Shown here: positions 1,100-62,035 of the stretch, in pieces
Layout: each line of letters begins with the position of its first letter
How positions within the stretch are numbered: position 1 is the first letter of the stretch
Sequence record: MK373774.1
Strand: one strand, 5' to 3'
Origin: Escherichia phage vB_EcoM_WFL6982
Length of the DNA: 64,000 nucleotides
The notes under the pieces: generated by a model
Databases searched by the model: none
What the model was told of the DNA's origin: nothing
Seen by the model: only the letters and a program-made list of their open reading frames with translations
Program-made: the position numbers and the translations under genes

Positions 1100-1150
1100 T
1101 TGTTTTGATAGGTCTATAGTATCAACAACTACAGACCTTGTAAACTGTTT
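1100..1150 (-). promoter_or_regulatory. T4-type early promoter (GTTTAC -35, TACTAT -10) with inverted repeat
   Basis: Minus strand GTTTAC-N18-TACTAT followed by CCTATCAA box; one of eight copies of the same architecture. Confidence 0.55.
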
Positions 1151-1157
1151 TGTGAAA

Positions 1158-2114
1158 TTATTTGAAAGGTTTTACCATATGAAAGTTTTGTTTGAAACGC
1201 TTGACGTAATCGTCGTGTCCTAAGCTTTGGTACATACTTACTACTTTGCTATAATTTTCCCAAGCGAACTCACGGAACCATCCTGATGTGATTGATGTAC
1301 AGACCTTTTCAAGGGCCATCATAAAACTATCACGTGGATGGATTTTAAAGTCGTTAGGAATCTGTGAACGTTCAAGAGCTAATACACAAGCTTCTTCATA
1401 TACACCGGCTAATTTAACCATTTCTGGTAATGATTCGAACTTCTCGCGTGATGTCATAACTTCTGAGCCTTCTTTCATATAAAACTTATAAGCAGGCTGG
1501 TCAGTTAGTGCAATGGCTTCATGGATAGTATCATGGTCATACGTATAGATGTCATCTTTAAAGAACGCACTTTTAGAAGTGTCAAGAACTGGGTGAGCAT
1601 AATTCAAGGTTTCTTTCTGGCGTTTCAGCATAATTTCAGTAAGTTCATCGTTCAGTGTAACACCTTTACCACGAAGATACTGAATATGGTTCATAGTCTT
1701 TAAAAAGAATGGATTATTTTTCTTGAAACGATGAGACATCTTAATTGCAAGACATATCTCAGGAGTTGCCCAGTAAAACCCGTTCAAACGGTCTTTAGTC
1801 AAATTTTTCTTGGCGTATTTTAAAAGGTCATAAGAAGACGTGAAATCTTCAGGAGTGAGTTCACCGACTAATTCACGGACATTAGTGATTGCCGGAACAA
1901 TATATGCTTCAAAATGAGTTTCGCGTCCATTATGGAAGCATTTGAAAACTTGGACATCAGGGTTATCTTGGTGAACATATACACCCATCATTTGATTTTT
2001 GAATGTATTCCAAGAACCTTGGTCCGCAATAAAGTCCCAATCACTATTTTTAATAGCGCTAGAATCAATAAGACCGTGATAGTGAAGTGCACGAGAACCA
2101 ATAACTAACATCAT
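1158..2114 (-). CDS. hypothetical protein, possible minimal nucleotidyltransferase fold
   Basis: 318-aa ORF with GAGGAAA SD; N-terminal IGSRAL...SDWDFIAD resembles the hG[GS]...DxD polymerase-beta-like motif (spacing longer than typical). Confidence 0.6.
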   Translation of the reverse strand: MMLVIGSRALHYHGLIDSSAIKNSDWDFIADQGSWNTFKNQMMGVYVHQDNPDVQVFKCFHNGRETHFEAYIVPAITNVRELVGELTPEDFTSSYDLLKYAKKNLTKDRLNGFYWATPEICLAIKMSHRFKKNNPFFLKTMNHIQYLRGKGVTLNDELTEIMLKRQKETLNYAHPVLDTSKSAFFKDDIYTYDHDTIHEAIALTDQPAYKFYMKEGSEVMTSREKFESLPEMVKLAGVYEEACVLALERSQIPNDFKIHPRDSFMMALEKVCTSITSGWFREFAWENYSKVVSMYQSLGHDDYVKRFKQNFHMVKPFK

Positions 2115-2142
2115 AATATTTTCCTCGGATTAATTCATTAAC

Positions 2143-2382
2143 TTAAATTTCACGACATGCGATATTATATTCATCCCAGAGGTCATCATGTGAAGCCTCT
2201 ACCAATGGAACGATTGTACCGTTTATGTCTTCATTATAAGGGCAAATTGTACAGTGCGCATCTTCGAATCGGATGCCTTTGTGTTCAGATTTTTTATAAC
2301 GCATATCGAATATCTTTGCAAACTTTTCACGAGTAATGGTTTTACCAACCACTTTGGTTCCGATACTTTCGTAATAAATCAT
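2143..2382 (-). CDS. hypothetical protein
   Basis: ORF with GGAG SD before MIYYES start; early promoter immediately upstream. Confidence 0.5.
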   Translation of the reverse strand: MIYYESIGTKVVGKTITREKFAKIFDMRYKKSEHKGIRFEDAHCTICPYNEDINGTIVPLVEASHDDLWDEYNIACREI

Positions 2383-2397
2383 TGTGGACTCCATTTG

Positions 2398-2445
2398 GTT
2401 TGATAGGACTACTATAACATAGCCCTATCTTGTTGTAAACTGTTT
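2398..2445 (-). promoter_or_regulatory. T4-type early promoter with inverted repeat
   Basis: Minus strand GTTTAC-N18-TATAGT-AGTCCTATCAA. Confidence 0.55.
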
Positions 2446-2642
2446 TAGCAAGAATAACTAGATGATACCCAGCCTTGAACAGTGATACTATTGTGGGATA
2501 ATGAGATCGCGTCCTGGAGATTCAGACCTGCGTTATCTTCAATCCATAATGTAACTTCTTCGCGTTCTTCTGTTGCAATTTGGAACAGGTTTTCCAGAGC
2601 AGCTACTGTCGTACGTACAGCACAATCTAATTCACGAGACAT
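2445..2642 (-). CDS. small protein, C-terminal GWVSSSxxC family member
   Basis: 65 aa; C-terminus QGWVSSSYSC shared with two neighbouring ORFs. Confidence 0.5.
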   Translation of the reverse strand: MSRELDCAVRTTVAALENLFQIATEEREEVTLWIEDNAGLNLQDAISLSHNSITVQGWVSSSYSC

Positions 2643-2651
2643 ATTGTTTCC

Positions 2652-2924
2652 TTAGCAAGTGTGAGAAGATGCGACCCAACCACCAGTTTCGAGGCTCAGG
2701 TTGTAGTCGTATTGGTAAACGTCAGCCCATTCAGCATAGCCGTTTTTTGTACAACGTTCAAGATCGGCTTTAAGATGTCCGGGTGAATGATAGGTTCCAC
2801 CCATACCATAAGCTGGATACAAGACGAATGTTGTGTTTTGTTTATCAGCAATTTCTTTGGCAGCCTCAATAGCTGCATAAATTTTTGCTACAGCTTCAGC
2901 CAGTTCGGTTTGTTCTTTAGACAT
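2652..2924 (-). CDS. small protein, C-terminal GWVSSSxxC family member
   Basis: 90 aa; KEIADK..YGMGGTYHSPG and C-terminal GGWVASSHTC paralogous to 2934-3239. Confidence 0.55.
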   Translation of the reverse strand: MSKEQTELAEAVAKIYAAIEAAKEIADKQNTTFVLYPAYGMGGTYHSPGHLKADLERCTKNGYAEWADVYQYDYNLSLETGGWVASSHTC

Positions 2925-2933
2925 AATGATTCC

Positions 2934-3239
2934 TTAGCACAACGCAGAAGACGAAACCCAAGCACCTTCAGTAATAACGTAACCATTACCTTCACGCTTA
3001 ACATCGCCACCATTATTTTCAATTTCATCTTTCATCCACTGGGATACGATTTCACCCTTAGGATAATAAGTACGACCGCTACCATAATCACCTACAGAAA
3101 ATGATACGGCATATTGGTCTGCGATCTTTGTTGCTTCTTCTTCGATACGTTCAGCTTGATTCAGAAGTTTATAAATTGCATCTGAAGCGGATTTGGCATC
3201 ATTAAACTCTGGTACTTTAATTTCAATAATCTTACTCAT
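2934..3239 (-). CDS. small protein, C-terminal GWVSSSxxC family member
   Basis: 101 aa; TKIADQ..YGSGRTYYPKG and C-terminal GAWVSSSALC. Confidence 0.55.
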   Translation of the reverse strand: MSKIIEIKVPEFNDAKSASDAIYKLLNQAERIEEEATKIADQYAVSFSVGDYGSGRTYYPKGEIVSQWMKDEIENNGGDVKREGNGYVITEGAWVSSSALC

Positions 3240-3595
3240 TTTCTACATTCCTTAATAAAGTTTTCGATTGTTTCATTTTCACGTCTAGCTAGGAGTTCAT
3301 TATAACTAATCATTTGAGAAGCGTAAACCTTTTTATTTTTCTTGTTATGGTTTATAAAATCGTAGTAAAAATAGACTACAGTACAAAAGGATGCGATGGA
3401 TGCAAAGGCTTGGGTATACCGTAAGTCCTGCCATTGGTCTGTGAATCCACCAGTGTTCCCTATAAATCCTAACACAACGCCATCAATAAGAAATCCAACT
3501 AATCCAAAGGCAAATCCCATGCCGGCGCTCATGATAAAAATTAAAATATTCTCACCAAGAGAAGGCCATACGGTTAAGAGTTGAGGCTTTTGCAT
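3236..3595 (-). CDS. small membrane protein
   Basis: Hydrophobic stretch MSAGMGFAFGLVGFLIDGVVLGFIG in the translation; overlaps neighbours by a few nt. Confidence 0.5.
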   Translation of the reverse strand: MQKPQLLTVWPSLGENILIFIMSAGMGFAFGLVGFLIDGVVLGFIGNTGGFTDQWQDLRYTQAFASIASFCTVVYFYYDFINHNKKNKKVYASQMISYNELLARRENETIENFIKECRK

Positions 3596-3933
3596 CTTAT
3601 TTCCTTAACGAATTCCATAGCTTCTTCATATTCATACTTTTTAACAGCTTCATCATACTGAGCTTGGGCTTTTGCGCACTGAACTTTCCACTCGCGAACT
3701 CGAGCTCTGTGATGACGGCCTTGGTGCCAATATCCTGCCCAATTAATAGGCATTAATAAAAATGGTACAATAAGTGGGGCGACGAACATTAATGAAAATG
3801 CTGCATCAGACGATATAACTTTACTAGAATCTAAAACAGCTCCTATAATCATAAAGATTAAAAATGCTAAAGCTAAAATAGGGCCAAATAGTACTTCGTT
3901 TGGGATTAATTTACGTTTGTATTCGTATGCCAA
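3574..3933 (-). CDS. small membrane protein (start uncertain, possibly TTG)
   Basis: Translation has YKRK followed by a hydrophobic helix; first codon in frame is TTG just after a hairpin plus T-tract; no ATG until codon 28. Confidence 0.4.
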   Translation of the reverse strand: MAYEYKRKLIPNEVLFGPILALAFLIFMIIGAVLDSSKVISSDAAFSLMFVAPLIVPFLLMPINWAGYWHQGRHHRARVREWKVQCAKAQAQYDEAVKKYEYEEAMEFVKEIRCKSLNS

Positions 3934-3960
3934 AAAGCCCCAACCTTTCGGAAGGGGCTA
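3934..3960 (-). terminator. stem-loop plus U-tract immediately upstream of the 3933 ORF
   Basis: Minus strand GCCCCTTCC-GAAA-GGTTGGGGC followed by TTTTT. Confidence 0.4.
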
Positions 3961-4010
3961 TGCCTTGCGGCAACCTTGTCGGGGTTCCACCTGCTAAGGC
4001 AAGTGTTTGT

Positions 4011-4102
4011 ACGAAACGCCGGGATTTGAACCCGGTTATTAAGTAGTTGACGCTACTCAATATTTTTAAAAGGCCATATCTCGACCATATCCGAACGTTC
4101 CG
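4011..4102 (-). ncRNA. tRNA-like structured RNA candidate (not a canonical tRNA)
   Basis: Minus strand has a canonical T-arm CCGGG-TTCAAAT-CCCGG and a 7-bp acceptor-like pairing 92 nt apart, but D and anticodon arms do not fold canonically. Confidence 0.25.
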
Positions 4103-4270
4103 TCAAAAACGCTACTCGGCTTACGGCAAAGATATTTCCTCGAATCGATAATTCTGTGCGCCGTTTCTGCTGTGATGTAAGGGGATATTAACAAATCGTA
4201 AAGATTTATTAAGACCAGTCCTTACTCAGGGAACATCAGTCCGACGACTTACCGGTAGCGACCCGGCTTC

Positions 4271-4615
4271 TTATTTTGACATATCATCAATTTGCTCTCG
4301 ACGCCGACGCCATAGATTAATCGCTTCATTAACACATTCGGCGTTTGGTATATGACGGCAATAATATAATGATTCGCGTTTCTGGAACCGATGTTGCAAC
4401 GGGATTTCGTTTAAAAGGTCTTTACGGTCAAAGTATTCAAAACTAGTTAACCCAGAACGATTTTTAAGAAACTTCCAATGTCCGAATTCATTTTGAAAAT
4501 AGACATAATCAGCATGCTGATACAGCGAATTAATTAACCTATCGGAAATAACTGTTTCACGTTCGTTAAAATAAAATGTTAAGTCATGAACTACCAGATA
4601 AATATTGCCTTTCAT
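4271..4615 (-). CDS. hypothetical protein
   Basis: ORF taken from internal Met MKGNIYLVVHD so that it does not overlap tRNA-Arg. Confidence 0.5.
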   Translation of the reverse strand: MKGNIYLVVHDLTFYFNERETVISDRLINSLYQHADYVYFQNEFGHWKFLKNRSGLTSFEYFDRKDLLNEIPLQHRFQKRESLYYCRHIPNAECVNEAINLWRRRREQIDDMSK

Positions 4616-4633
4616 ATTTTCCTCACTTAAAGT

Positions 4634-4709
4634 TGGTGCCTCTAGAAAGATTTGAACTCTCACCATTAACCTTAGAATGATTATATGCTATCCATTACAC
4701 TATAGAGGC
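4634..4709 (-). tRNA. tRNA-Arg (anticodon TCT)
   Basis: Hand-folded cloverleaf: perfect 7-bp acceptor GCCTCTA/TAGAGGC, T-arm GAGAG-TTCAAAT-CTTTC, anticodon loop ATTCTAA, encoded CCA; 76 nt. Confidence 0.8.
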
Positions 4710-5366
4710 AATTAAATTATTTACAATATCTTCTTTATAAACTTCAGCATAATGAAGTTCATATATTTCCCATCCTAATGATTTTATAATATCATGGCGT
4801 TCTTTATAATAAGGGGCCAAAATCTTTTTCTTAGGATTGGAGTAATGTTGGTTTCCATTAACTTCAATAATAATCTTTTTATCTATTAAAGCAATATCCG
4901 TGCAATACGCTCGGTTTTTAACCGGTTGGTATTCTTCAATAAATGAAATTCCATTTTCTATTAATTTAGATTTCAAAAATTCACAAGGCACAGATTTAAA
5001 TTTTGTATTTTTCTTCCAAGGATGTTTATCGGGGTTTTCATTCAACCATTTTTTCCGAGCATTAGATATTTTTATTCTAGCTTCCTCAGAGTGTTCTCTA
5101 CCTAATGAAGCGGCTGACAATTTTTGTCTAGTCTCTTCCGAAATTACTACAGGAACACCAGTCTTTTTAGATACAACATACTGGTTTAAATTACCTGAAG
5201 CTATACGTGCTTTATTCATTGCTGCAATGGCTGATTTAGAACTTTCTTTATACAATTCCAATTTAGGGTTGGATTTACACCATCTAGTGTGGTTAGCCAT
5301 CCATCCTTTAGGTTTATTAGAAATATCAAATTCCATATTACAATGTTTACAAATGCTCATTACCAA
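4695..5366 (-). CDS. putative homing endonuclease (zinc ribbon, NUMOD3 repeats, Vsr/DUF559-like C-terminal region)
   Basis: N-terminal CKHC..HTRWC; tandem ISEETRQKLSAA and HSEEARIKISNA NUMOD3-like motifs; C-terminal IIEVNGNQH...SLGWEIYEL; sits where segB sits in T4 as I recall. Confidence 0.6.
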   Translation of the reverse strand: MVMSICKHCNMEFDISNKPKGWMANHTRWCKSNPKLELYKESSKSAIAAMNKARIASGNLNQYVVSKKTGVPVVISEETRQKLSAASLGREHSEEARIKISNARKKWLNENPDKHPWKKNTKFKSVPCEFLKSKLIENGISFIEEYQPVKNRAYCTDIALIDKKIIIEVNGNQHYSNPKKKILAPYYKERHDIIKSLGWEIYELHYAEVYKEDIVNNLIASIV

Positions 5367-5434
5367 TTATCTCCTATAAAATATAGGAGTATTTATTATT
5401 TGGATAGAGCACTTAATTTACTTCGTTTAAATTA

Positions 5435-5506
5435 CTGGCGCACTTGGACTCGAACCAAGATAAAGGAGTTAACAGCTCCCCGTAATAACCTTTATACGAT
5501 GCACCA
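5435..5506 (-). tRNA. tRNA-Asn (anticodon GTT)
   Basis: Hand-folded: acceptor TGGTGCA/TGCGCCA, anticodon arm GGGAG-CTGTTAA-CTCCT, T-arm CTTGG-TTCGAGT-CCAAG; 72 nt. Confidence 0.7.
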
Positions 5507-5512
5507 TTTGTT

Positions 5513-5587
5513 TGGTGACCCTGGCTGGTTTCGATCCAGCTACCTATCAGTTATGAGCTGACAGCTCTCCCATTGAGCTACAGGGCC
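5513..5587 (-). tRNA. tRNA with CAT anticodon (Met, or Ile if lysidine-modified)
   Basis: Hand-folded: acceptor GGCCCTG/CAGGGTC, D-arm GCTC..GAGC, anticodon loop CTCATAA, T-arm GCTGG-ATCGAAA-CCAGC, encoded CCA; 75 nt. Confidence 0.75.
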
Positions 5588-5666
5588 TAAATAACTTTCT
5601 ATTATGAAAGGCACTTTAGAGCACCTTTGGTAATAGAGGGTATGAATTAATAATAACACATAATTC

Positions 5667-6182: not shown

Positions 6183-6186
6183 TTAC

Positions 6187-6842: not shown

Positions 6843-6843
6843 T

Positions 6844-7041
6844 TTACTCACCTTTTGCAATTTTATCCATAACGATAGCGATTAAGCCGATTAGAAATGC
6901 TACTACCAATGAGATAGAGTTTTCAGTTGTTGTCAGTAGTCCACAAATGAATCCTACAAACATCGAAAAACTAAAAGCCATTGAAGCAATTACTACAGCA
7001 ACATTACGAATCAGTTCAGCGCGTTTCATTTTATTCTCCAT
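6844..7041 (-). CDS. small membrane protein
   Basis: 65 aa, almost entirely hydrophobic; early promoter directly upstream. Confidence 0.45.
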   Translation of the reverse strand: MENKMKRAELIRNVAVVIASMAFSFSMFVGFICGLLTTTENSISLVVAFLIGLIAIVMDKIAKGE

Positions 7042-7051
7042 TTACTCATTT

Positions 7052-7100
7052 GATTTGATAGGACTACTATAACATAGTCCTATCAGCATGTAAACTACTT
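7052..7100 (-). promoter_or_regulatory. T4-type early promoter with perfect 9-bp inverted repeat
   Basis: Minus strand GTTTAC-N18-TATAGT; GATAGGACT/AGTCCTATC arms flank the -10. Confidence 0.55.
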
Positions 7101-7386
7101 ACAGAAGAGTTTTTGCAATAATTTTAAGCTGAGCTACAGAAATATGCTTAGCTTTAAACAGTGCAGTCTCTTCGGCCGGAGAGATAACAATAGTAGCGCC
7201 GTCTTTCTTAGCAGACCATCCATCCCCTAAGTAAACAGTACCTTTTACTTCTTCGCCGTCAACCAGGCTAATCATTGGTTTACCCTCACGTCCTTTATTT
7301 GCTTTAATAACTTCGGAAGTAAGGGTTGCTTCGGTCAGAGTAGAAACGTTAGCAAAAGGTGATATAAATTCTTTATAGGATTTCAT
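7099..7386 (-). CDS. ipI: internal protein I (anti-restriction, packaged)
   Basis: Translation ..GREGKPMISLVDGEEVKGTVYLGDGWSAKKDGATIVISPAEETALFKAKHIS.. matches T4 IPI. Confidence 0.85.
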   Translation of the reverse strand: MKSYKEFISPFANVSTLTEATLTSEVIKANKGREGKPMISLVDGEEVKGTVYLGDGWSAKKDGATIVISPAEETALFKAKHISVAQLKIIAKTLL

Positions 7387-7407
7387 TTTATTTCCTTGAG
7401 GTTATTT

Positions 7408-7455
7408 ATTTGATAGGATGATAGTATCACACCATCATCCTTATGTAAACTGTTT
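7408..7455 (-). promoter_or_regulatory. T4-type early promoter with inverted repeat
   Basis: Minus strand GTTTAC-N18-TACTAT; AGGATGATG/CATCATCCT arms. Confidence 0.55.
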
Positions 7456-7463
7456 TGTGAAAA

Positions 7464-8149: not shown

Positions 8150-8153
8150 TTTA

Positions 8154-8888
8154 TTACCTTAAGATTGTTTCAATTTTAGAATAAAGCTCTTCTAAAGAGC
8201 CGTCGTTTGTAATAACTAAATCGCCTTCTTCAATAGGCAACCCAGCTTCTGTAATATGTTTATCGGTGGATTCCGTACCAGAGCGAACCACATGAATAAC
8301 TGTAGCACCCATCGCTCTAGCGGTTTCCATTTCATGGACTTGGCGTGTATCGGTCACAACGTAGTAATCGAAATCACTTCCAATATAATCCATATAGTTT
8401 AATGCAAAAAGCTTAACCCAATACATACGGTCAAATAAATTAACGACAACATCCGTACCGAGGGCTTGCATAAGACGGCGGATCGACCACGTGTCGTTGA
8501 TATTATTTATAGCTTCACGCAGGGCTTCGTACGGTTTAATATCTAGATATGAGTATCCACCTTCTAGTGATGATAATACGTTAACACCATTAATTGGCAG
8601 GTATTGTCGTTGTAAATAAATTAGCGTTTCTTCCATTAATTCAATAACATCCAATTTATTGAGATTTAATGGTGTTTCACGGTCGTATCCAATGCCTTCA
8701 AAGTATTCATATTTCAACTCGGTGAATACATCAGGGTTTTCGGCATGTTTACGCTCCCAAGCTATTGCTAGAGCGTCTTTAATTGGATATGCTAATTGAT
8801 ATTTTACGGATTTAAAGTTTGAATTGATGTAATCAGCAGTGGTGTCTTTACCACTACGTTTGATGCCGCTTAAAAAGATTAGCTCCAT
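8154..8888 (-). CDS. 1: deoxynucleoside monophosphate kinase
   Basis: P-loop GIKRSGKDT; T4 gene order. Confidence 0.85.
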   Translation of the reverse strand: MELIFLSGIKRSGKDTTADYINSNFKSVKYQLAYPIKDALAIAWERKHAENPDVFTELKYEYFEGIGYDRETPLNLNKLDVIELMEETLIYLQRQYLPINGVNVLSSLEGGYSYLDIKPYEALREAINNINDTWSIRRLMQALGTDVVVNLFDRMYWVKLFALNYMDYIGSDFDYYVVTDTRQVHEMETARAMGATVIHVVRSGTESTDKHITEAGLPIEEGDLVITNDGSLEELYSKIETILR

Positions 8889-8941
8889 AGGTTTTCCTCA
8901 TATAATTTATGAGTGATTATAACATACGGAGCTAGAAGCGA

Positions 8942-39542: not shown

Positions 39543-39812
39543 TTATTTCTGTGCAATTTCGATGTAAGTTTTCAAAATATTTTGCCAATTAGGCATACCT
39601 TCTTGGGCATATGCCGGAGAACCATCTTTGTTTTTGAATGATGCAAGTTTATCAGTGGCCCAATAACCTTTAGCTCGAGCTTCAGAATCAACTTTCATCC
39701 ATACTTTGTTGAAGGCATTACCATTAACTTTTGCACCATATTTTTCTACTAACTTAACTGCTTCAGCTTCCAGAACTTTTAAAGTATCTCGTAAGAAACG
39801 TGCTTTAGTCAT
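39543..39812 (-). CDS. hypothetical small basic protein (early gene inside the late capsid block)
   Basis: 89-aa ORF with GAGGAG SD and its own early promoter; no match to any T4 protein I recall. Confidence 0.65.
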   Translation of the reverse strand: MTKARFLRDTLKVLEAEAVKLVEKYGAKVNGNAFNKVWMKVDSEARAKGYWATDKLASFKNKDGSPAYAQEGMPNWQNILKTYIEIAQK

Positions 39813-39824
39813 TTTGTTTACTCC

Positions 39825-39875
39825 TCTGTAGTTGATAAGTCTATAGTATCACATACCAAATACGTTGTAAACAAT
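39825..39875 (-). promoter_or_regulatory. T4-type early promoter
   Basis: Minus strand GTTTAC-N18-TACTAT-AGACTTATCAA. Confidence 0.55.
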
Positions 39876-42603: not shown

Positions 42604-42800
42604 TTCTTCACCTTTTTGTTAATCAAACGTTTACGGTATACAACTTTTTCTTTTGCTTTAAACTTTGACCGAGCTGTCTCGGCTTTAGTCCATAGTAATC
42701 CAACTTCTTTAGGTTGTAAACCAATTTTTTGAGCAATTTCTACGAATGAAAATCCCGCCTCATGTAATGTATAAACTTCAACTTCAGCTCTCATAATCAA
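42600..42800 (-). CDS. hypothetical protein (24.3 position)
   Basis: 66-aa basic ORF, synteny. Confidence 0.5.
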   Translation of the reverse strand: MIMRAEVEVYTLHEAGFSFVEIAQKIGLQPKEVGLLWTKAETARSKFKAKEKVVYRKRLINKKVKK

Positions 42801-54283: not shown

Positions 54284-54289
54284 GAAAAA

Positions 54290-54306
54290 GGGAGACGTTG
54301 TCTCCC
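54290..54306. terminator. GGGAGACGUUGUCUCCC hairpin, bidirectional
   Basis: Variant of the GGGAGAC...GUCUCCC hairpin between convergent gene 54 and the 54316 ORF. Confidence 0.6.
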
Positions 54307-54315
54307 TTTAGGGGT

Positions 54316-54624: not shown

Positions 54625-54670
54625 TTGTTGATAGGATAATAGTATCACACATCCATGTGTTTGTAAACTA
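54625..54670 (-). promoter_or_regulatory. T4-type early promoter
   Basis: Minus strand GTTTAC-N18-TACTAT-TATCCTATCAA; overlaps the alt 3' end. Confidence 0.5.
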
Positions 54671-56755
54671 TCCTTGGACAAATTTAAACGGAACTGATTC
54701 TAAATCCATTAAAGATGCTAACAATTTCAAACCTTTAGGTGCACTAGTTTTTTCTACAAATGAAGAGAACGATACCGGCTCATCCGATTCGATTTCACCC
54801 GTCATAGCAACCACCTCGCCTGTTTCCATGAGAACATCACCATCGTAAATGACAGCTTCATCCAACTGGTCTGAGGACATGACTTCAGCTTGAATAAATT
54901 TAAGGTTAGATTCTAAACCTGCACCAGTGTCAGATGACGCATCTGTAATTTTATTTATCTGCAAGAGAATGCCTCTAGGCAAAATAATTTCTTGCTCATT
55001 AGGGTGATTACTCAACTGTCCTGGATAAATCACGTTAACTTTATGGGCGCCGTCAATAGCCCATCCAACGTTAACACGGATTTGTTCTGGCGCATGCATA
55101 GCGGTACGCACCAGACTAGGAGAAATAGTAACACCTTCATCATTATTGTCAATGTTAAGCTCTTTGCGAACTTCTTCAGGAGCAAGTCCAAGGGCAACGT
55201 TCTCTTTAAACCCACCGAAAATAATAGGAGCTAGTGAAGTGGAAACATAGTTTCTGAAGTAGAATACCTTATTTTTAACCATTGCTTCGTAAATAGGCAT
55301 TCTGATAGACTGAGCTCTATATAACGTTAGTCCTTCAGGTAAACGGTCTCCATTTAAAAACGCCGAATCAAGACCATCAATAGCGCGTTTAACTTCATCT
55401 TCATCTGCAACATCGTAAAAATCTGGTTTATAACGACCTAACAACATATTATTGATATCGGTATACGCAGAAGAGGCATATTCACGAATAGCTCGTTTTT
55501 CAGCAACAGAGTATTGTTTAGGGTCCCGATTCATTGTTATATTAAAGGTGCCTCTAGCCGATTCTCGTGCATAAGTATACATCACACTAGACAAGAACGC
55601 TGATTTACGTTGTTTCCAAGTTTTTTCAGATACTTCAGCTAAAACATCGTCGGCCAGTTGGAAATTATCACGTCTAAAATCTTCAAACCATTCGTCTTTA
55701 ATAGAGTCCGCAATTTCGTTTGCAGCTTCAACAAAAGCAGCTAATGCTTTAACAGATGTTGTTTTTTCAGTTTTAATTTTCTTAGCAAACTTTTCTAAAG
55801 TTGGCTTAATAACACTACCATAAGAAACTTCATCAGCAAATCTAAAGGATTCATCAATACGATTATAAATCTTATTTTCGATATCAGCAACTAAAGTGCC
55901 TTTTGCTGTGGATGATGCTTGGGCTAGTACGATTTCATATGCTTCAGGAAGTAATTCGGCTGTAGCCGGGCCACTAACTTCTTTAGCAGAATTTTCGTAT
56001 TTCTGGAATAACTCACCTTCTTGGCGGTCAGCTTCTAAAGATTGGCTTGCGGCAATAGCACGACGAGAAATTTTAGTACGAGCAATAACAGGCTTATCTT
56101 TACGTTTTTCTTCTACAGCAGCAATAGAACCGGCGATAGCCGTTTCTTTGGTGACCTTTTCGCCAGTCTTTTTACTCACATAAACTTCGCCAACATCAGA
56201 ATCTACTTTCGCGTACAACTCTGTGTTAATGTTAGGGATGCCTTTAATATCTTCAATGTTGGCATTTTTACGAACCATCATCACATAGGTGTGTTTACCT
56301 GTGAATTGATACATTGCCGACAATACTTTAAAACGACCACCGGTTTTAGTAGAAACTAAACGAGCAAGAAGAGTTTGAAGCTGCTGTCCACGTCCTTTCA
56401 ATTTCTTGGTAGGGAATCGGAATAGAACCGCATCCATACGAAGAGCTTTAACCTGTTCATATACTGTATTGAAAATGGTGTTGATTGCATCAATAGGAGC
56501 AGGACCAAGGCCATTTTTCAATTCAGCGAGATTACCCTTTTCAGACAGACTCATAATAACAACATGAGCGTATTTGTCGCCAAGTTTAACTTGTTTTACA
56601 GCGTCGCCTTCGGAAAGGTAAGAGAATAAACGAACTACGATGTTTGTATCAACATCACCAATTTTCCAGACTTGTGGAACTTTAGCTTTAGGGTTCAAAT
56701 TGACGACAGGAAGACTGCCTTCAGATTCAAACACTTCATTTAATTGTTCAGACAT
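54668..56755 (-). CDS. alt: ADP-ribosyltransferase Alt
   Basis: 695 aa; C-terminal R-S-E type motifs (LYRAQ, STSL, QEIILP); position between 54 and 30. Confidence 0.85.
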   Translation of the reverse strand: MSEQLNEVFESEGSLPVVNLNPKAKVPQVWKIGDVDTNIVVRLFSYLSEGDAVKQVKLGDKYAHVVIMSLSEKGNLAELKNGLGPAPIDAINTIFNTVYEQVKALRMDAVLFRFPTKKLKGRGQQLQTLLARLVSTKTGGRFKVLSAMYQFTGKHTYVMMVRKNANIEDIKGIPNINTELYAKVDSDVGEVYVSKKTGEKVTKETAIAGSIAAVEEKRKDKPVIARTKISRRAIAASQSLEADRQEGELFQKYENSAKEVSGPATAELLPEAYEIVLAQASSTAKGTLVADIENKIYNRIDESFRFADEVSYGSVIKPTLEKFAKKIKTEKTTSVKALAAFVEAANEIADSIKDEWFEDFRRDNFQLADDVLAEVSEKTWKQRKSAFLSSVMYTYARESARGTFNITMNRDPKQYSVAEKRAIREYASSAYTDINNMLLGRYKPDFYDVADEDEVKRAIDGLDSAFLNGDRLPEGLTLYRAQSIRMPIYEAMVKNKVFYFRNYVSTSLAPIIFGGFKENVALGLAPEEVRKELNIDNNDEGVTISPSLVRTAMHAPEQIRVNVGWAIDGAHKVNVIYPGQLSNHPNEQEIILPRGILLQINKITDASSDTGAGLESNLKFIQAEVMSSDQLDEAVIYDGDVLMETGEVVAMTGEIESDEPVSFSSFVEKTSAPKGLKLLASLMDLESVPFKFVQG

Positions 56756-56796
56756 AGTGTTTTCCTTTTAGTAATAATTTATATTTATGCCAAAAA

Positions 56797-56810
56797 GAGC
56801 CCGAAGGCTC
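56797..56810 (-). terminator. hairpin GAGCCUUCGGGCUC
   Basis: Hairpin plus T-run directly after the stop of the 56811 ORF. Confidence 0.45.
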
Positions 56811-56999
56811 TTAATCCACAATCGGAAGCAAAGTACGATAAACTTCAAAATTAGAGCCTTTTTCGTACTTATCGAAATTGTCCATAAAAATATGATAGGA
56901 ATCGTTATTAGGAAAATCTAATATAATCTGAGAGCAAGAGGTGGAAACATCTCCACCATCCTTCTTAGCTACAATAACTGTTTCTAAATAAGCTTTCAT
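56811..56999 (-). CDS. hypothetical small protein
   Basis: Start MKAYLET in TAATG overlap with the ligase stop. Confidence 0.5.
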   Translation of the reverse strand: MKAYLETVIVAKKDGGDVSTSCSQIILDFPNNDSYHIFMDNFDKYEKGSNFEVYRTLLPIVD

Positions 57000-58492
57000 T
57001 ATAAACCTGTCTGGGACCACGGTCCAAATACGTCTTCAAACGAATCCGCTTCTGTTTTATCAAAACGGAACCCTTTAATAATTGGGAGGAAAATACCTAC
57101 AGTGCCTTCACGTCCTTTAGAATGAACCCAACCATTGCATTCACAATCAGCAATACGTCCAATCAATTTACCTTCACGAGCTTCGGTCATTAATCGTTCA
57201 CGGTCCAAATCATGTCGCTCATCTAAAGGAATAAGAACCTTTACACCATCAACTGTTTTATGAGTTGTATCTTTAAACCCTGAACCACAATCGGTTGTAA
57301 TACGACGACAACGTGATACGAGTTCGACACCACCTAATTTGTTAGGGTCTTTAGAGTGTTCATAGTATCCTACAACTTCTAAAGCGATATCAATAACTTC
57401 TTTAAATTTAATTAGGTTCTTAGAACGTTTGTTTTCCCAATATGAATCACGGTTTTTAAGGATAATACCTTCAAGACCTTGGTCAACATATTTTTTATAA
57501 ACCACTTTAGCTTCGTCAAGATTACGAACTAACTGATTTTCAATTGGCTCAATTCGTTTAAAGCCTTCAGCCATATTTTCAAGAGCAGCAAAACGAACAT
57601 CGTATTTCTGACCTTTAATTTTGCCATCAGAATAGACTTCATCTAAAGGAACATAGTCCCAGGCTTGAAGAACCATACCTTCAGCTTCTTTAGGAGAAAT
57701 AGTCCCTTGAAGAGATTTATTTGCTAAACCGTTTGAAGTGCTACGGTCCGCAACTTGTACTTCTTCGGATTCTTCATTATCACCAAATAAGAACGACAGG
57801 TCATTTCCTGAGCTCACAGCCTTTTTAATATCAAATGAATGGTAAACTAATTCACCGTCGATTAAAACCCCATTAGGGTGTCTTTCACGAGCTTCTTTAG
57901 TCATTTCCATTAGTTCATCCGCTAATAGAGTAAGACCATGATATTCGTTGCCGGCACGAGAAAAGAATTGAACACCATCATCGCGAACTTCAGCGAAACA
58001 ACGAGCACCATCTGCTTTTAATTGGGCAAATGCGGGCCATTTAATATTTTTAGTAATCAATTTCTCGTCATATGCAGATGCTAACATCTGTGGTTGCAAT
58101 TGAATAAGTCCAGGCCACACCTTATTCGCGATAGACACTGAAGCACCTACTTCAAGATCGCGCATCATTACACGACGAAGGACTTCTACATCATCAGGTT
58201 TACCATCAGCGATATAACCCATGAGCTCTTTAATTGCAGCATTACCAGTGAGTTTACGAGTGGCTAATGTGAACTCAATAAAATCCAACATGTCATCTAA
58301 TTCAAGAAGACCATACGCTTGAGACCTTTCACCTGGTCCTGGCCATTTCTTAATATAATACTGGATACCACGTGCATATGTTAAACGATACACACGTTCA
58401 AGTAATTTGTTGTCCTTATTTTTCTTAAGGATTTCCTGTTTTGTTTTAGTAGAACCAATCGCAGCTATTTGGTTTAAAATATCTAAAATCAT
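56999..58492 (-). CDS. 30: ATP-dependent DNA ligase
   Basis: MILDILNQIAAIGSTK.. and adenylation motif KADGAR match T4 DNA ligase. Confidence 0.95.
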   Translation of the reverse strand: MILDILNQIAAIGSTKTKQEILKKNKDNKLLERVYRLTYARGIQYYIKKWPGPGERSQAYGLLELDDMLDFIEFTLATRKLTGNAAIKELMGYIADGKPDDVEVLRRVMMRDLEVGASVSIANKVWPGLIQLQPQMLASAYDEKLITKNIKWPAFAQLKADGARCFAEVRDDGVQFFSRAGNEYHGLTLLADELMEMTKEARERHPNGVLIDGELVYHSFDIKKAVSSGNDLSFLFGDNEESEEVQVADRSTSNGLANKSLQGTISPKEAEGMVLQAWDYVPLDEVYSDGKIKGQKYDVRFAALENMAEGFKRIEPIENQLVRNLDEAKVVYKKYVDQGLEGIILKNRDSYWENKRSKNLIKFKEVIDIALEVVGYYEHSKDPNKLGGVELVSRCRRITTDCGSGFKDTTHKTVDGVKVLIPLDERHDLDRERLMTEAREGKLIGRIADCECNGWVHSKGREGTVGIFLPIIKGFRFDKTEADSFEDVFGPWSQTGL

Positions 58493-58758
58493 TTGATGTC
58501 CTCGATTTTGGTTACGGTTCTATTATAAGCCACTTCATCTAGAAGCGATTTCAGCGTTTTCTGATAAGTTGTAATCCATTTACCGAGTCCTTCAACATAG
58601 TATTCTGAAATGTAGATGAACCCTTGTTCAACACACTCTTTAAATATTTCTGCGTCTTTTACTGAACGAAACAATGGCCAGTCTCGAAAGAACATGTTAA
58701 CGTGACCGTAGTCACGTGTGGTATTTTTGCCATCTGTAATATCATGAACTACAAACAT
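58489..58758 (-). CDS. hypothetical protein (30.1 position)
   Basis: 89-aa ORF, ATGA overlap with ligase start. Confidence 0.55.
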   Translation of the reverse strand: MFVVHDITDGKNTTRDYGHVNMFFRDWPLFRSVKDAEIFKECVEQGFIYISEYYVEGLGKWITTYQKTLKSLLDEVAYNRTVTKIEDIK

Positions 58759-58767
58759 AATTAACCC

Positions 58768-59592
58768 TTAACAATTTATAGACCAAGTCCATTTAGACGA
58801 ATCTAAAGGAAAGTTTTGAATCGTCCACCACGGCTGCATATCAGTTGGTCCTGGGGTTCGCCAGGTATATGGAGTACGTGTTGTCGAGGGGCCACCAATT
58901 TGATTAGGCCATGCACCTGGACTTGTTGCACCAGATTCTTTAAGCAAATCCGCCAATCGTTTTAAAAGGTCTTCACGATCTGAATCTGAATTATTCTTAG
59001 GCAGAACCAAACGAGATTCAATATCATCCCACGTGTGTACACGTTGTGCAGTACGAGGAATGGCATCACGTTCACCACGAGCCAACCAATAAATCGGTAC
59101 ATTAAGAATTTCTGCCGCATGGTCACAATGATGAGCTAAATCGTCAACGTAACAAATTACGTTATATTTTGTTTTAGCTAGTTCGAATAATTGTTCCTTT
59201 GAAGAATCATGACCACACATCATTACTTCAGAGAAAGCGCCTGGGAACAAAGCATTCAAATTAAATTGTCTATTCAATCGAGCATCAATTGAATCACCTA
59301 GCGCCGTCACGGCTACAAAATTATAGTCTTCTTTTAGTTTATTGATAACTCGAAGAGCATCAGAATAAGGCGCTAAGTAACGAATAAAATCAGAGCTATT
59401 ATATTTTTCTATTAATTGTTTACCAAGGTTATCGTCGGTGTTGAACAGTTTACCAGGAGAAATAAATTTTTCGTCCTGAATCATTTTTAAAATATGTTCT
59501 AATGGAAGGTTATATTTTTGGGCAAAATAAGGAAGTCCAGATTGCCAGCTTAAACATACACCATCAATATCAGTCAAAATAGTAGGCTTCAT
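58768..59592 (-). CDS. HAD-superfamily phosphatase-like protein with Trp/Pro-rich tail
   Basis: N-terminal ILTDIDGV (DxDG[TV] motif); C-terminal PGAWPNQIGGPSTTRTPYTWRTPGPTDMQPWWTIQNF. Confidence 0.6.
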   Translation of the reverse strand: MKPTILTDIDGVCLSWQSGLPYFAQKYNLPLEHILKMIQDEKFISPGKLFNTDDNLGKQLIEKYNSSDFIRYLAPYSDALRVINKLKEDYNFVAVTALGDSIDARLNRQFNLNALFPGAFSEVMMCGHDSSKEQLFELAKTKYNVICYVDDLAHHCDHAAEILNVPIYWLARGERDAIPRTAQRVHTWDDIESRLVLPKNNSDSDREDLLKRLADLLKESGATSPGAWPNQIGGPSTTRTPYTWRTPGPTDMQPWWTIQNFPLDSSKWTWSINC

Positions 59593-60056
59593 AAAGAGTC
59601 TCTTAATAGGTTTAACACGTCAATAAATTCATCTTCAGTTAGTATTGTATCATCTTTTGTTAGGTGGCTGGCCATGCTGTGCTTCAAAATTTTTCCTTTA
59701 GAGGCTTGTAAGGCATCACGAAACCCCTTGTTTTGGATCGCGGCTTCAAAATATGCATTTGTGTATAATTCTTTCCATGCTTCGGAGTATCTTGAAAATG
59801 GAACTCCTAACCAGAAGAGAGTCCCACGGTCCTGAGCTCTTGCGTAAGACCTTCCAGCTTGCTGTGCAGCCAATCCAGACAACCAAAATATACGTCTTTG
59901 TTGTTCAACATTTTTCACCTTACATCCTTGGAGAAATCCTTCAAGACCTCCGAATTGAATACCATCCATAACAAAAGGCCATTGAGCAAAGTTACTTAAT
60001 GCACATGACGGCCATTTGAAATTACTTCTTATTTCTAATTCAGACATCTTTAACAC
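59589..60056 (-). CDS. NADAR/YbiA-like (DUF1768) protein
   Basis: ALSNFAQWPFVMDGIQFGGLEGFLQGCK resembles the YbiA core FSNFAAWP..DG...SEHYFQAQK. Confidence 0.55.
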   Translation of the reverse strand: MLKMSELEIRSNFKWPSCALSNFAQWPFVMDGIQFGGLEGFLQGCKVKNVEQQRRIFWLSGLAAQQAGRSYARAQDRGTLFWLGVPFSRYSEAWKELYTNAYFEAAIQNKGFRDALQASKGKILKHSMASHLTKDDTILTEDEFIDVLNLLRDSL

Positions 60057-60258
60057 TTATAATTTCAACATCAGCCCAATGTCCGTATCCAGGTATACGG
60101 TCTTCGATAGATAAATTTCTGTCATTTTTAGGCATTTTAATTGACGTAACGTATGGTTCTAAACGGTTTTCCGCGTAATATGGAAAAACGTCGGTTACAC
60201 GATAAGTAACTTCAATCATTTCCGTACCAAACAATTTCTGGATTAATTTATTCAACAT
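60040..60258 (-). CDS. hypothetical small protein
   Basis: 72-aa ORF in operon. Confidence 0.4.
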   Translation of the reverse strand: MLNKLIQKLFGTEMIEVTYRVTDVFPYYAENRLEPYVTSIKMPKNDRNLSIEDRIPGYGHWADVEIISVKDV

Positions 60259-60445
60259 GTTTCAACCCTTTAATAGGAGATAACTCTTTACCCATACGTA
60301 TGTCAGAAGTCCCATCAACCCATTGAACAGCATACGCTTCATTGATAATTCCAGCGGCAGTTTTAAATTCGTTGAGAACTTTAAAAATCATCCCAGGGAT
60401 TCCAACACCTTTTAATTGGACTGTTTGTGCTATTAAAAATTTCAT
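60248..60445 (-). CDS. hypothetical small protein
   Basis: 65-aa ORF in operon. Confidence 0.4.
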   Translation of the reverse strand: MKFLIAQTVQLKGVGIPGMIFKVLNEFKTAAGIINEAYAVQWVDGTSDIRMGKELSPIKGLKHVE

Positions 60446-60499
60446 ATTTTTCCACTTACTAAAGAAATCATTATACTCTAATCCGTCCTTGGATGTACA

Positions 60500-61114
60500 C
60501 TACTTAATGAAATTAATTTCTACCGGATGAACAACAGGTTGAGCAGTGATATATTGAGTAATTGCTTTCATGACTAGAGCTTCAGAACCAGGATTTTTCT
60601 CAACGAATTCACGTGCTAGGTTATGAGCTTCGAGTTCACTCAATAAACCGGAACGCTGGCATCCACGGTCTTGAGTACCCTGTTCAGATAAAAGGACTAC
60701 TACATATTTTTCATCGTCGTAGGGCTTAGCCAGTTGAGCAAATGTTCCTTTACTTCCAAAAGGAGAGTTATGTCGCCACATCACGCCGTGAGGAGTTTCA
60801 ACCTTCGTATATTCGTGCGGTCCATTTTTCTTAGTTTCTTGATGTGGAACTTCATAGACTTTAGGGTTAGGACATTCAATAAAATGCTCATCTAAATCGG
60901 TCGAGAATATTAAAGTAAAACAATTACTGAATTTACCAACACCGGCCTGATAAATTTTACCTTCAGAAGTTCTAATTTCACAAACTGAGCCGGCATCAGT
61001 AACTTCTAAAACTTCAAAAGGCTCAATAAGGTCATATGAGAACATGTTTTTAAGGCGTGGAGTAATATCCCCATTTTTAAAATTCATTTTATAAAAAGTA
61101 TTAACTTTAAACAT
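60500..61114 (-). CDS. hypothetical protein
   Basis: Start MFKVNTFYK with GAGGAAA SD; longer frame would read through the upstream terminator hairpin. Confidence 0.55.
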   Translation of the reverse strand: MFKVNTFYKMNFKNGDITPRLKNMFSYDLIEPFEVLEVTDAGSVCEIRTSEGKIYQAGVGKFSNCFTLIFSTDLDEHFIECPNPKVYEVPHQETKKNGPHEYTKVETPHGVMWRHNSPFGSKGTFAQLAKPYDDEKYVVVLLSEQGTQDRGCQRSGLLSELEAHNLAREFVEKNPGSEALVMKAITQYITAQPVVHPVEINFIK

Positions 61115-61126
61115 AATTTCCTCAGT

Positions 61127-61142
61127 GGGAGCCGAAGCTCCC
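61127..61142 (-). terminator. hairpin GGGAGCUUCGGCUCCC
   Basis: UUCG-loop hairpin between the 61150 and 60500 ORFs. Confidence 0.45.
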
Positions 61143-61149
61143 AATTAAT

Positions 61150-61515
61150 TTAGATATCAAATTCGTTAAGAACTACATCAAAGATTGCTTCGAGATGTTC
61201 AGGTTTAGCTCGGTTACTCAGGATATGACGAATCCAAGTTTTAACCAGAAGTTTACGATTAACACCATTCCAGCAAGGATGAGTACCTAAATCACGCTGA
61301 CGGAAATCATCATCTAATGCAATTTTAAAATTTGAACCTTCCATCGTGATTGAAACCGTGATACCATTTTCAAATCGCATATAAACGTAATTAGGAGTCA
61401 TGCACTGTTCGATTTCACAAACTGTACCGTTTTCGTGTTTCCATAAGCAAATAACTTCAGAAGAACCAGCAATACCGTTAGAAACATATTTACGTTCGAA
61501 GTTGGTGTAGTTCAT
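61150..61515 (-). CDS. hypothetical protein
   Basis: Start MNYTNFERKY with GGAGA SD; longer frame begins with TTG and covers a promoter-like element. Confidence 0.5.
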   Translation of the reverse strand: MNYTNFERKYVSNGIAGSSEVICLWKHENGTVCEIEQCMTPNYVYMRFENGITVSITMEGSNFKIALDDDFRQRDLGTHPCWNGVNRKLLVKTWIRHILSNRAKPEHLEAIFDVVLNEFDI

Positions 61516-61534
61516 TTTATTCTCCAGATGTTTA

Positions 61535-61590
61535 AGTTGTTTGTTGGTACAGGTCTCTATAATAACATAACCTGTACCAAAGTAAACTGT
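61535..61590 (-). promoter_or_regulatory. T4-type early promoter with inverted repeat
   Basis: Minus strand GTTTAC-N17-TATTAT with GGTACAGG/CCTGTACC arms. Confidence 0.45.
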
Positions 61591-61591
61591 T

Positions 61592-61960
61592 TTATGCAAC
61601 TTTAATCCAATTGTCTAAATTTAAAACACCTTTGGCTTTCATTTTTTCTATCAGGTTATCTGCTGTAATGCGTCCATTTTGATACCATGTAACATCTTCA
61701 GAGTAACCAGTTTCTTCGTCAACATATGTTTCTGAACGAATTTTACCGGTAATAATAGTTTTTAATTCGTATGTGTCACCTGTGAAAAAGTTTGCTAACA
61801 CAATTTTCCAAGAGAAATCATCAGAAGGACCTTCAGGGGTCATACAACCTACGAACTCAAATTGCTCTTTGTATAACATCCACTGGAATTCTTTAATTTC
61901 GATAGCTTTATAACCATCGTGGTCTTTACATTTGATGTATGAGTTCAGATTGATTTTCAT
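61592..61960 (-). CDS. hypothetical protein
   Basis: 122-aa ORF downstream of an early promoter. Confidence 0.5.
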   Translation of the reverse strand: MKINLNSYIKCKDHDGYKAIEIKEFQWMLYKEQFEFVGCMTPEGPSDDFSWKIVLANFFTGDTYELKTIITGKIRSETYVDEETGYSEDVTWYQNGRITADNLIEKMKAKGVLNLDNWIKVA

Positions 61961-61984
61961 TTTGTTCTCCAGGTTGTTTTATTG

Positions 61985-62035
61985 ATTAGATGGTACAAGT
62001 CTATAGTAACACATCCTACAGGAGAGTAAACATCT
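61985..62035 (-). promoter_or_regulatory. T4-type early promoter
   Basis: Minus strand GTTTAC-N17-TACTAT-AGACTTGTACC. Confidence 0.5.

Follow-up and report, generated by a model that had tools for sequence, protein, structure and literature searches.

Introduction

The closest described counterpart of the element treated here is the promoter-early stem-loop (PeSL) cassette, reported for the phages RB49/phi1, T4/PST and KVP40/nt-1 (Arbiol 2010, PMC2839356; Comeau 2014, PMC4122927), whose stem-loops are located most often between the -35 and -10 hexamers or overlap the latter (PMC2839356). One PeSL cut expression of a downstream lacZ about as strongly as rrnB T1, and mini-circles as well as crossovers within PeSLs have been demonstrated for RB49/phi1, recombination between cassettes shuffling genes (PMC2839356). 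Here we analyze early promoters in a 64,000-nucleotide (nt) stretch of Escherichia phage vB_EcoM_WFL6982 (record MK373774.1; this whole stretch is referred to as the window), in most of which the spacer between -35 and -10 is complementary to the sequence following it. By analogy, the window cassettes most likely represent an RB69-like version of the PeSL cassette, placed on promoters that had already been predicted.

As in PeSLs, the cassettes comprise a stop codon, an A/T-rich stretch, a sigma-70-type promoter, a stem-loop at or near the -10, a Shine-Dalgarno sequence and an ATG, many copies are present per genome, and PeSLs are known from gene-content breakpoints between close relatives, two of which also coincide with window cassettes; moreover, the T4/PST PeSL consensus TTTACW-N17-TAYWAT fits the window sites. 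On the other hand, RB69-like phages fall outside the PeSL descriptions, and the stems of RB49/phi1 are polyG/polyC, whereas the arms here are of mixed sequence and tied to an aga-CCTATC box. The PeSL papers furthermore read the stem as a terminator or attenuator, while the window hairpins lack a U-tail, and they are silent on covariation, G·U bias, translation and Shine-Dalgarno pairing.

Two other systems offer points of comparison. Like the window sites, the early promoters of T4 and RB69 (Liebig and Rüger 1989; PMC1524935; Hinton 2010, PMC2988021) have an A-rich element, their GTTTAC spans -36 to -31 and their TAnnnT -12 to -7, C is favoured from -3 to -1, and they precede early genes and novel open reading frames (ORFs). 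Those descriptions treat the spacer as unconstrained, and the terms 'stem-loop', 'hairpin' and 'inverted repeat' are absent from the text of Nolan 2006 (PMC1524935). The leaders of T4 e, soc, 49 and I-TevI (PMC3014915) are alike in that the 5' arm of the hairpin lies upstream of the proximal start site, so that only long transcripts fold. There, however, the internal promoter is late and the purpose temporal, with early read-through being silenced, while the internal promoter here is early; the 2010 T4 review describes hairpins masking the ribosome site in combination with an internal promoter for late promoters only (PMC3014915).

Results

By Megablast, the window is 100% identical over both ends to positions 64001-128000 of Escherichia phage vB_EcoM_WFK (MK373775.1), the record of which is assigned to Straboviridae, Tevenvirinae, Mosigvirus, the RB69-like group. 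The full 164,590-bp WFK genome, assembled from the record and the window, provided a genome-wide set of 39 early promoters, and the T4 genome, two RB69 stretches and about 40 T4-like phage loci from IMG/VR, anchored on dNMP kinase, DNA ligase and gp30.8, served as comparison material. The T4 records NC_000866 and AF158101 are devoid of promoter features, and IMG/VR returned no relatives of the internal-protein-like product of ORF 7099-7386. Promoters are named by the first base of the -35 GTTTAC on the minus strand, in window coordinates.

To separate genuine complementarity from that inherent to the promoter consensus, each spacer was matched both to the sequence that follows it (-10 to ATG) and to the corresponding stretch of every other promoter, an arrangement by which the family consensus is retained in the control. 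This register-free comparison, accompanied by orientation controls, was preferred because the register differs among promoters, any one register suiting only about a quarter of them, and because the innermost pairs (TGn with TAnnnT) stem from the consensus itself. For the eight window promoters, the mean longest Watson-Crick run was 6.88 with the own downstream sequence versus 4.77 with those of the others (p = 5e-5). The longest complementary run across the 39 WFK promoters was 6.21 against 4.69 in permutations (z 8.5), with duplex energies of -11.0 and -7.5 kcal/mol, respectively (z -8.3), and T4 yielded 6.08 against 4.51 (z 9.4). Among 143 distinct promoters of T4-like phages the corresponding values were 6.86 and 4.60, the z of about 24 being inflated by near-duplicate orthologs, and an own run of at least 8 was found in 54 of them (38%), as compared to 2.5% of cross pairs. 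Individual spacers are discriminating too: those of 7450 and 61587 fit their own downstream sequence better than that of every other promoter (for 7450, 0 of 38 others match as well). Direct and reversed non-complemented orientations displayed no enrichment (z -1.9 to 1.0), and complementation without reversal gave z 2.9 in WFK and 0.9 in T4.

Complementarity is thus in excess of what the promoter consensus yields, and the covariation is real; the earlier note on this DNA had named covariation no better than that of a palindromic consensus as one outcome that would speak against its reading, a level surpassed in WFK as well as in T4. Its central observation, that sequence changes while complementarity is kept, also extends beyond the sites from which it was made, to WFK paralogs, to orthologs in other phages and to T4. 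Pairing is a family-wide property of T4-like early promoters and not special to the eight window sites.

The eight minus-strand sites listed in that note, with GTTTAC and a spacer of 17-18 nt, are all present (Table 1); the spacer is 17 nt long in 61587 and 62031 and 18 nt in the other six. Five copies have TACTAT as the -10 and two TATAGT, as had been stated for all, with 61587 deviating (TATTAT). A box, CCTATCAA, said to follow usually, is exact in five of the eight and then invariably 3 nt 3' of the -10; 39872 carries the variant CTTATCAA, and 61587 and 62031 are without it. Across the 39 WFK promoters this box belongs to the start-site consensus of the family, aga-CCTATCAA at -6 to +5, with A at the predicted +1 in 31 of them and a weaker form of the consensus in T4, in agreement with the preference of RB69 early promoters for C at -3 to -1 (Nolan 2006, PMC1524935). 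TGn is often found directly 5' of the -10 TAnnnT in T4-type sites, the hallmark -35, spacer and -10 are seen in 8/8, and in most copies an A-rich upstream element, AAAACA or AAAGAT, adjoins the 5' side of GTTTAC (scored by eye).

Each of the eight precedes a gene on the early strand in the correct orientation, and a Shine-Dalgarno sequence and an ATG follow within about 20-45 nt. In seven, the preceding stop codon is located 0-23 nt before the -35, that of alt overlapping the -35 of 54668; 39872 is instead flanked by the divergent late gene 24. Counterparts exist among the 58 early promoters predicted for RB69 in 2006 (PMC1524935), seven being orthologs and one (for 1145) a positional equivalent, and hence the promoters themselves were already known by prediction. 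From these features we infer that all eight are sigma-70 early promoters of the T4 type in an RB69-like phage, congruent with the early-promoter type originally proposed, with initiation predicted. The list of eight was incomplete, as the window holds at least two further members of the family (3328 and 42721).

Strong hairpins of 11-12 bp are predicted for five of the eight promoters (1145, 2440, 7095, 7450 and 61587), with folding energies (dG) from -15.4 to -18.3 kcal/mol and z from -4.1 to -5.5. In all five the 5' arm occupies the spacer, and the 3' arm, which starts within the -10, terminates between -1 and +9; in 7450 the entire -10 is inside the stem. Promoter 54668 adopts a moderate two-level fold (dG -13.3 kcal/mol, z -2.06), the outer stem of which encloses the promoter. 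No significant local fold was detected for 62031, with imperfect pairing only (CUGUAG/CUAUAG and others; dG -11.0 kcal/mol, z -1.33), nor for 39872 (dG -6.7 kcal/mol, z -0.39). The spacer of 62031 includes TCTCC, complementary to the Shine-Dalgarno GGAGA, but this is within the cross-promoter background, and 39872 shows weak long-range pairing of TTGTTTAC (39867-39874) with GTAAACAA (39814-39821), just 5' of the ATG (z -1.76). The inverted repeat linking the spacer to the bases that follow the -10, claimed for most copies, holds for five strong cases and one moderate. As for the arms quoted, CATCATCCT does not occur in the sequence, the real arm TATCATCCT forming 8 Watson-Crick pairs and one G·U, while the pairing of GGTCTGTAG with CTATAGACC is real and likewise comprises 8 pairs and one G·U. 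Interpreting the sites as a conserved structure over the -10 is therefore correct for five of the eight, and arguably for a sixth. Above the gathering score, Rfam covariance models recovered only three tRNAs in the window and no known RNA family at the promoters.

Orthologous promoters show how freely the arms change. The promoter of gene 30.7 (61587) has the arms TTGGTACAGGTT/AACCTGTACCAA in RB69-like phages, while other phages carry the unrelated pairs GCTGATTGAGTGT/ACACTCAATCAGC, GGTGAGGGTCT/AGACTCTCACC, TGGTGTAGGAGTA/TACTCTTACACCA and TTTGTAGGAGAC/GTCTCCTACAAA; in the more distant loci L010-L014 (about 50% identity of the downstream protein) the pair is CTCCGTTGTATGT/ACATACAACGGAG, with the Shine-Dalgarno sequence as the 3' arm. 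At least five unrelated arm pairs are therefore represented at this one promoter. For the trna.4 promoter (7095), 87.5% of the cells in an alignment of ten orthologs, which stem from only about three lineages, are paired versus 79% in shuffles (0/500 as high); both partners differ in five of the pairs, and shifting the register lowers the value to 34-57%. The orthologs of 54668 retain a stem within the spacer that is built from different sequences (CCACA/TGTGG and GCAC/GTGC). Within WFK, at least six paralogous promoters share the arms TAGGACTA/TAGTCCTA.

The imperfections of the helices bear on the strand on which the pairing is maintained. In helices with one or two mismatches, G·T in the sense orientation occurs 15 times, A·C 4 times and others 3 times (binomial p about 0.01, with some redundancy), whereas mismatches in cross-promoter controls number 149, 163 and 567, respectively. 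Sense-strand G·U mismatches favour an RNA hairpin. Congruently, in 55 of 66 cases the hairpin segment folds more stably as sense RNA than in the antisense version (Wilcoxon p = 4e-7).

Across the family the 5' arm is located in the spacer throughout, and the 3' arm falls into three classes. In the commonest, to which the five strong window hairpins belong, it spans -8 to +9, from the last bases of the -10 across the start site, placing the axis between -12 and -11. In the third, exemplified by 54668 and its orthologs, both arms lie inside the spacer. In the second, the 3' arm is the Shine-Dalgarno sequence itself, ending 3-7 nt before the ATG: the part of the spacer adjoining GTTTAC (TTCTCC...) can pair without mismatch, over 10-15 bp, with the Shine-Dalgarno region of the driven gene, as with TTCTCCTCTAGTTG/CAACTAGAGGAGAA upstream of regB and TTCTCCAGTAGTTG/CAACTACTGGAGAA, and the variable flanks covary (TCTAG/CTAGA, CAGTAG/CTACTG and TCTGG/CCAGA). 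The second-class examples lie outside the window, at WFK genome positions 60551 (upstream of regB), 20353, 7428, 63846 (154 nt before window base 1) and 57391, at T4 65413, 130310, 62797 and 53943, and in loci L010-L014 near 8886-8916 and 724-969. A 3' arm covering the Shine-Dalgarno, as in the e, soc, 49 and I-TevI leaders, is hence encountered at WFK 60551, 20353 and 7428 and T4 65413 and 130310, while it is lacking in the five strong window hairpins and weak in 39872 and 62031.

The second-class stems reach about -20 kcal/mol, and in the folding model masking of the ribosome-binding site is thermodynamically clear in read-through RNA and does not take place in RNA initiated at the own promoter. 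Averaged over all promoters, the predicted unpaired probability from the Shine-Dalgarno to the AUG is 0.47 in read-through and 0.69 in own-promoter RNA.

Table 1. Early promoters and predicted helices of the window. Hairpins and folds bear the name of their promoter; dG in kcal/mol.
Feature	Coordinates	Strand	-35 GTTTAC	-10	Start-site box	Predicted +1	Gene context	RB69 promoter	Helix
Promoter 1145	1105..1145	-	1140-1145	1116-1121 TACTAT	CCTATCAA 1105-1112	A 1109	upstream of nudE-like ORF 649-1077	Pe:67959 (positional only)	
Promoter 2440	2400..2440	-	2435-2440	2411-2416 TATAGT	2400-2407	2404	upstream of RB69ORF135c-like ORF 2143-2382	Pe:69254	
Promoter 7095	7055..7095	-	7090-7095	7066-7071 TATAGT	7055-7062	7059	upstream of trna.4-like 6844-7029	Pe:76459	
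Promoter 7450	7410..7450	-	7445-7450	7421-7426 TACTAT	7410-7417	7414	upstream of internal-head-protein/'nuclease inhibitor' gene 7099-7386	Pe:77187	
Promoter 39872	39814..39874	-	39867-39872	39843-39848 TACTAT	CTTATCAA 39832-39839		upstream of small ORF 39543-39812, between genes 23 and 24	Pe:109605	
Promoter 54668	54628..54674	-	54663-54668	54639-54644	54628-54635		upstream of alt.-3-like gene	Pe:125323	
Promoter 61587	61544..61587	-	61582-61587	61559-61564 TATTAT			upstream of gene 30.7 homolog; 17-nt spacer	Pe:131670	
Promoter 62031	61988..62035	-	62026-62031	62003-62008 TACTAT			upstream of gene 30.8 homolog; 17-nt spacer	Pe:132117	
Further family member 3328	3299..3328	-		TATAAT, after N18			weak, without repeat	Pe:70143 (ortholog, score only 4.9)	
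Further family member 42721	42692..42721	-		TACTAT, after N18			within gene 24.3 homolog, upstream of 24.2	Pe:112451 (ortholog, score 24.2)	
Hairpin 1145	5' arm 1128-1138, 3' arm 1110-1120	-							AGGTCTGTAGT with ACTATAGACCT; 11 bp, one G·U; dG -16.6, z -4.83
Hairpin 2440	5' arm 2419-2429, 3' arm 2402-2412	-							5' arm GATAGGGCTAT; 11 bp including G·U pairs; dG -16.0, z -5.29
Hairpin 7095	5' arm 7074-7085, 3' arm 7056-7067	-							5' arm TGATAGGACTAT; 12 bp; dG -17.7, z -5.47
Hairpin 7450	5' arm 7430-7441, 3' arm 7415-7426	-							AGGATGATGGTG with TACTATCATCCT; dG -15.4, z -4.28
Hairpin 61587	5' arm 61569-61580, 3' arm 61544-61555	-							TTGGTACAGGTT with GACCTGTACCAA; dG -18.3, z -4.10
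Fold 54668, outer stem	54667-54674 with 54633-54640	-							AGGATAGT with ATTATCCT; encloses promoter
Fold 54668, inner stem	54656-54660 with 54647-54651	-							ACACA with TGTGT; inside spacer

Several observations on neighboring sequence accompany the promoters. A plus-strand look-alike of the family (GTTTAC...TATAGT at 39816-39847), the only one found, is the leader of promoter 39872 read as its reverse complement, and GTAAAC before the ATG of the gene of this promoter mirrors its -35 hexamer. The leaders at 7030-7050 and 1078-1100, and one near WFK genome position 54263, share AAATGAGTAAATGGAGAATAAAATG, the ATG of which opens a 7-codon mini-ORF (ATG AGT AAA TGG AGA ATA AAA TGA) with an ATGA overlap to the gene start; it could encode a leader peptide or be merely a repeated leader. 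Colinearity with, and 98.5% identity to, RB69 65076-66007 identify the ORF at 126-614, annotated 'baseplate hub subunit and tail lysozyme', as the gene e lysozyme, and ORF 649-1077 as nudE.

Discussion

The explanation that best accommodates these data, and the one we consider probable, is that of early promoters with a built-in PeSL-type stem-loop that would fold only in read-through RNA and insulate the downstream gene. Such a promoter would be packed directly behind the stop codon of the preceding gene and consist of the A-rich element, GTTTAC, TGn-TAnnnT, aga-CCTATCAA and A at +1, with the otherwise unconstrained spacer supplying the 5' arm and the end of the -10, the discriminator and the start site the 3' arm. 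Folding is expected in read-through transcripts alone, because the 5' arm is upstream of +1 in every class: RNA from the own promoter could not form the hairpin, while RNA from an upstream promoter would, and would thereby be marked as read-through. The presumed effect is that expression of the downstream gene from upstream-initiated RNA is lowered or insulated, by attenuation for the class seen in the window and, for the related class found in other parts of the genome, by hiding of the Shine-Dalgarno sequence. For the window class, the folding predictions leave attenuation, 3'-end protection and 5'-end protection as possible effects. Initiation at the sites, folding in vivo and the effect on expression are what we infer from sequence.

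With respect to the PeSL cassette, a stem-loop in or over the promoter is present in the strong form in five of eight, in the moderate form in one and without significance in two, the layout is intergenic, and WFK carries about 39 copies. Of about six breakpoints between WFK and RB69 in the regions compared, two fall inside promoters (1145 and 7450).

A number of points weigh against this explanation. When a single fixed register is imposed on all 76 WFK and T4 promoters, unselected, the signal is weak, 46.7% paired versus 44.8% shuffled, a level reached by 17 of 500 shuffles. A significant repeat is lacking in three of the eight window promoters, few independent lineages stand behind the ortholog sets, and the predicted +1 was assigned by rule, 7 nt 3' of the -10. 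The G/T-rich consensus before the -10 may contribute to the energy gap between sense and antisense RNA. The attenuator role derives from one reporter experiment on a different, G/C-rich stem-loop from RB49/phi1. Furthermore, no U-tract or T-rich tail follows the promoter hairpins on either strand, the tails being A/C-rich (for example ATCAAAACAAA), and the 3' arms of the five strong hairpins stop 17-30 nt short of the ATG (at -1 to +9), leaving the Shine-Dalgarno uncovered and its predicted accessibility shifted little or modestly.

Two other functions were rejected on the same grounds. Intrinsic terminators resemble the promoter hairpins in being stable intergenic hairpins right after a stop codon, but the latter have no T-tail, their stems are not especially G+C-rich, and they are not among the terminator-like hits of the window. 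A contrast is provided by the canonical intrinsic terminator at 54287-54309 on the minus strand, a 10-bp stem AAAGGGAGAC...GTCTCCCTTT followed by TTCTT, which ends the alt.-3 transcription unit. Masking of the Shine-Dalgarno by the five strong window hairpins was discarded in view of where their arms end and how little accessibility changes.

A more far-reaching proposal is tentative in our view, namely that roughly one third of the early-promoter spacers of T4-like phages, T4 included, double as RNA regulatory arms, pairing with their own start-site region or with the Shine-Dalgarno of the driven gene through perfect stems of 10-15 bp that covary, so that transcripts would be read by origin. 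Own-promoter RNA would be open, whereas read-through RNA would be folded, with a ribosome site that is either masked or made accessible only by ribosomes completing the gene upstream. Such a system is not described in the PeSL papers (PMC2839356, PMC4122927) or in the 2010 T4 review (PMC3014915).

The same RNA hairpin could alternatively serve mainly as an mRNA stability or processing element that does not act on transcription or translation, protecting the 3' end of the upstream cistron or the 5' end of the downstream one after cleavage by RNase E or RegB (in the A-rich leader or at GGAG). The hairpins are stable (-15 to -18 kcal/mol), lie 4-23 nt past the upstream stop codon without a U-tail and have a strand asymmetry that favours RNA, and RegB cuts T4 early mRNAs at intergenic GGAG, with RNA structure guarding against it (PMC3014915). 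A protective role, however, gives no reason for placing the 5' arm in the spacer, save a shortage of free sequence, and leaves the class with an exact Shine-Dalgarno 3' arm unexplained; we regard it as unlikely, if the best placed of the alternatives to the insulating stem-loop.

Slightly less likely still is that the repeat acts as DNA, with the cassettes being recombination modules in which the palindrome, as a cruciform or single-stranded DNA hairpin, creates hotspots of the kind of gene shuffling that has been proposed for PeSLs. Here the breakpoints are of relevance. The one at 1139 (window 933-1139) separates the -35 of promoter 1145 from its spacer, with WFK lacking the four RB69 genes ORF133c, ORF132c, e.2 and ORF130c, and the one at 7364-7418 is in the leader of promoter 7450, where RB69 has one extra internal-head-protein gene. 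Their location inside the promoters, together with the PeSL mini-circles and crossovers known in RB49/phi1 (PMC2839356), speaks for such a role, and fits cassette-mediated gene shuffling. Nevertheless, homologous exchange would be expected to use the conserved parts (upstream element, -35, -10, box and leader) and not the variable arms, the bias for G·T over A·C and the energy advantage of the sense strand are unexpected for a symmetric DNA structure, the arms of the Shine-Dalgarno class are 25-35 nt apart and would make poor cruciforms, and, in the window regions compared, four further breakpoints lie away from promoters. In a T4 recombination study (eLife 2022), junctions were not tied to early promoters.

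As to the breakpoints outside promoters, WFK is missing 3.3 kb of RB69 sequence (e.5 to ORF149c) after 3932, and at 60261-61108 the region matching T4 genes 30.4-30.6 is replaced. About 880 nt at 4637-5516 of WFK are without RB69 counterpart and contain ORF 4695-5360, which overlaps a tRNA-Arg, plus a tRNA-Asn; at what we take to be the equivalent spot among the tRNA genes, T4 carries the homing endonuclease gene segB, and the stretch may be a seg-type insertion.

Improbable, in our estimation, is a functionless repeat, left behind by quasi-palindrome template-switch mutation or by cassette copying and tolerated in an unconstrained spacer. Quasi-palindrome correction is reportedly a mutational process in T4, as Ripley is said to have described in 1982, many paralogous promoters have common arms, and a clear repeat is lacking not only in three window promoters but in about 60% of promoters genome-wide. 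Against a mere by-product, orthologs with unrelated arms, even with shifted 3'-arm positions, remain complementary, two separate genomes show a large, orientation-specific enrichment, and the G·U bias signals a constraint on one strand. Finally, the dimeric binding site over the -10 that the earlier note had offered as the other option beside a structure, for example an operator for an early-promoter shut-off factor, has hardly any probability left: the symmetry axis of the commonest register does fall at the upstream edge of the -10, and T4 early-promoter shut-off is incompletely understood (PMC3014915), but we rejected it because arm sequences, lengths and registers differ wholly among copies and orthologs (at least 15 unrelated pairs, with varying arm position and spacing and a shifting 3' arm), the mismatches are strand-asymmetric with G·U prevailing, and only CCTATCAA, which is unpaired and non-palindromic, is conserved.

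Taken as promoters with a built-in stem-loop, these sites show that the supposedly 'free' spacer of a strong phage promoter has to satisfy one more requirement, that of pairing with the sequence downstream, and this holds in Mosigvirus as well as in Tequatrovirus, including T4. Statistical and covariation support is thereby added to the PeSL stem-loop, for which the two PeSL papers make no mention of covariation, and the evidence speaks for RNA over a protein site or a DNA cruciform; overall, we view the finding as a well-supported but incremental addition to a known element. Should transcripts indeed be read by origin, the trick of the late genes e, soc, 49 and I-TevI would extend to a genome-wide system embedded in promoters. 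If folding of read-through RNA affects expression, it would help to explain how tightly packed early genes with strong promoters escape cumulative over-expression, and it would then be of relevance for the engineering of T4-like therapeutic phages and for the reuse of their promoters as parts.

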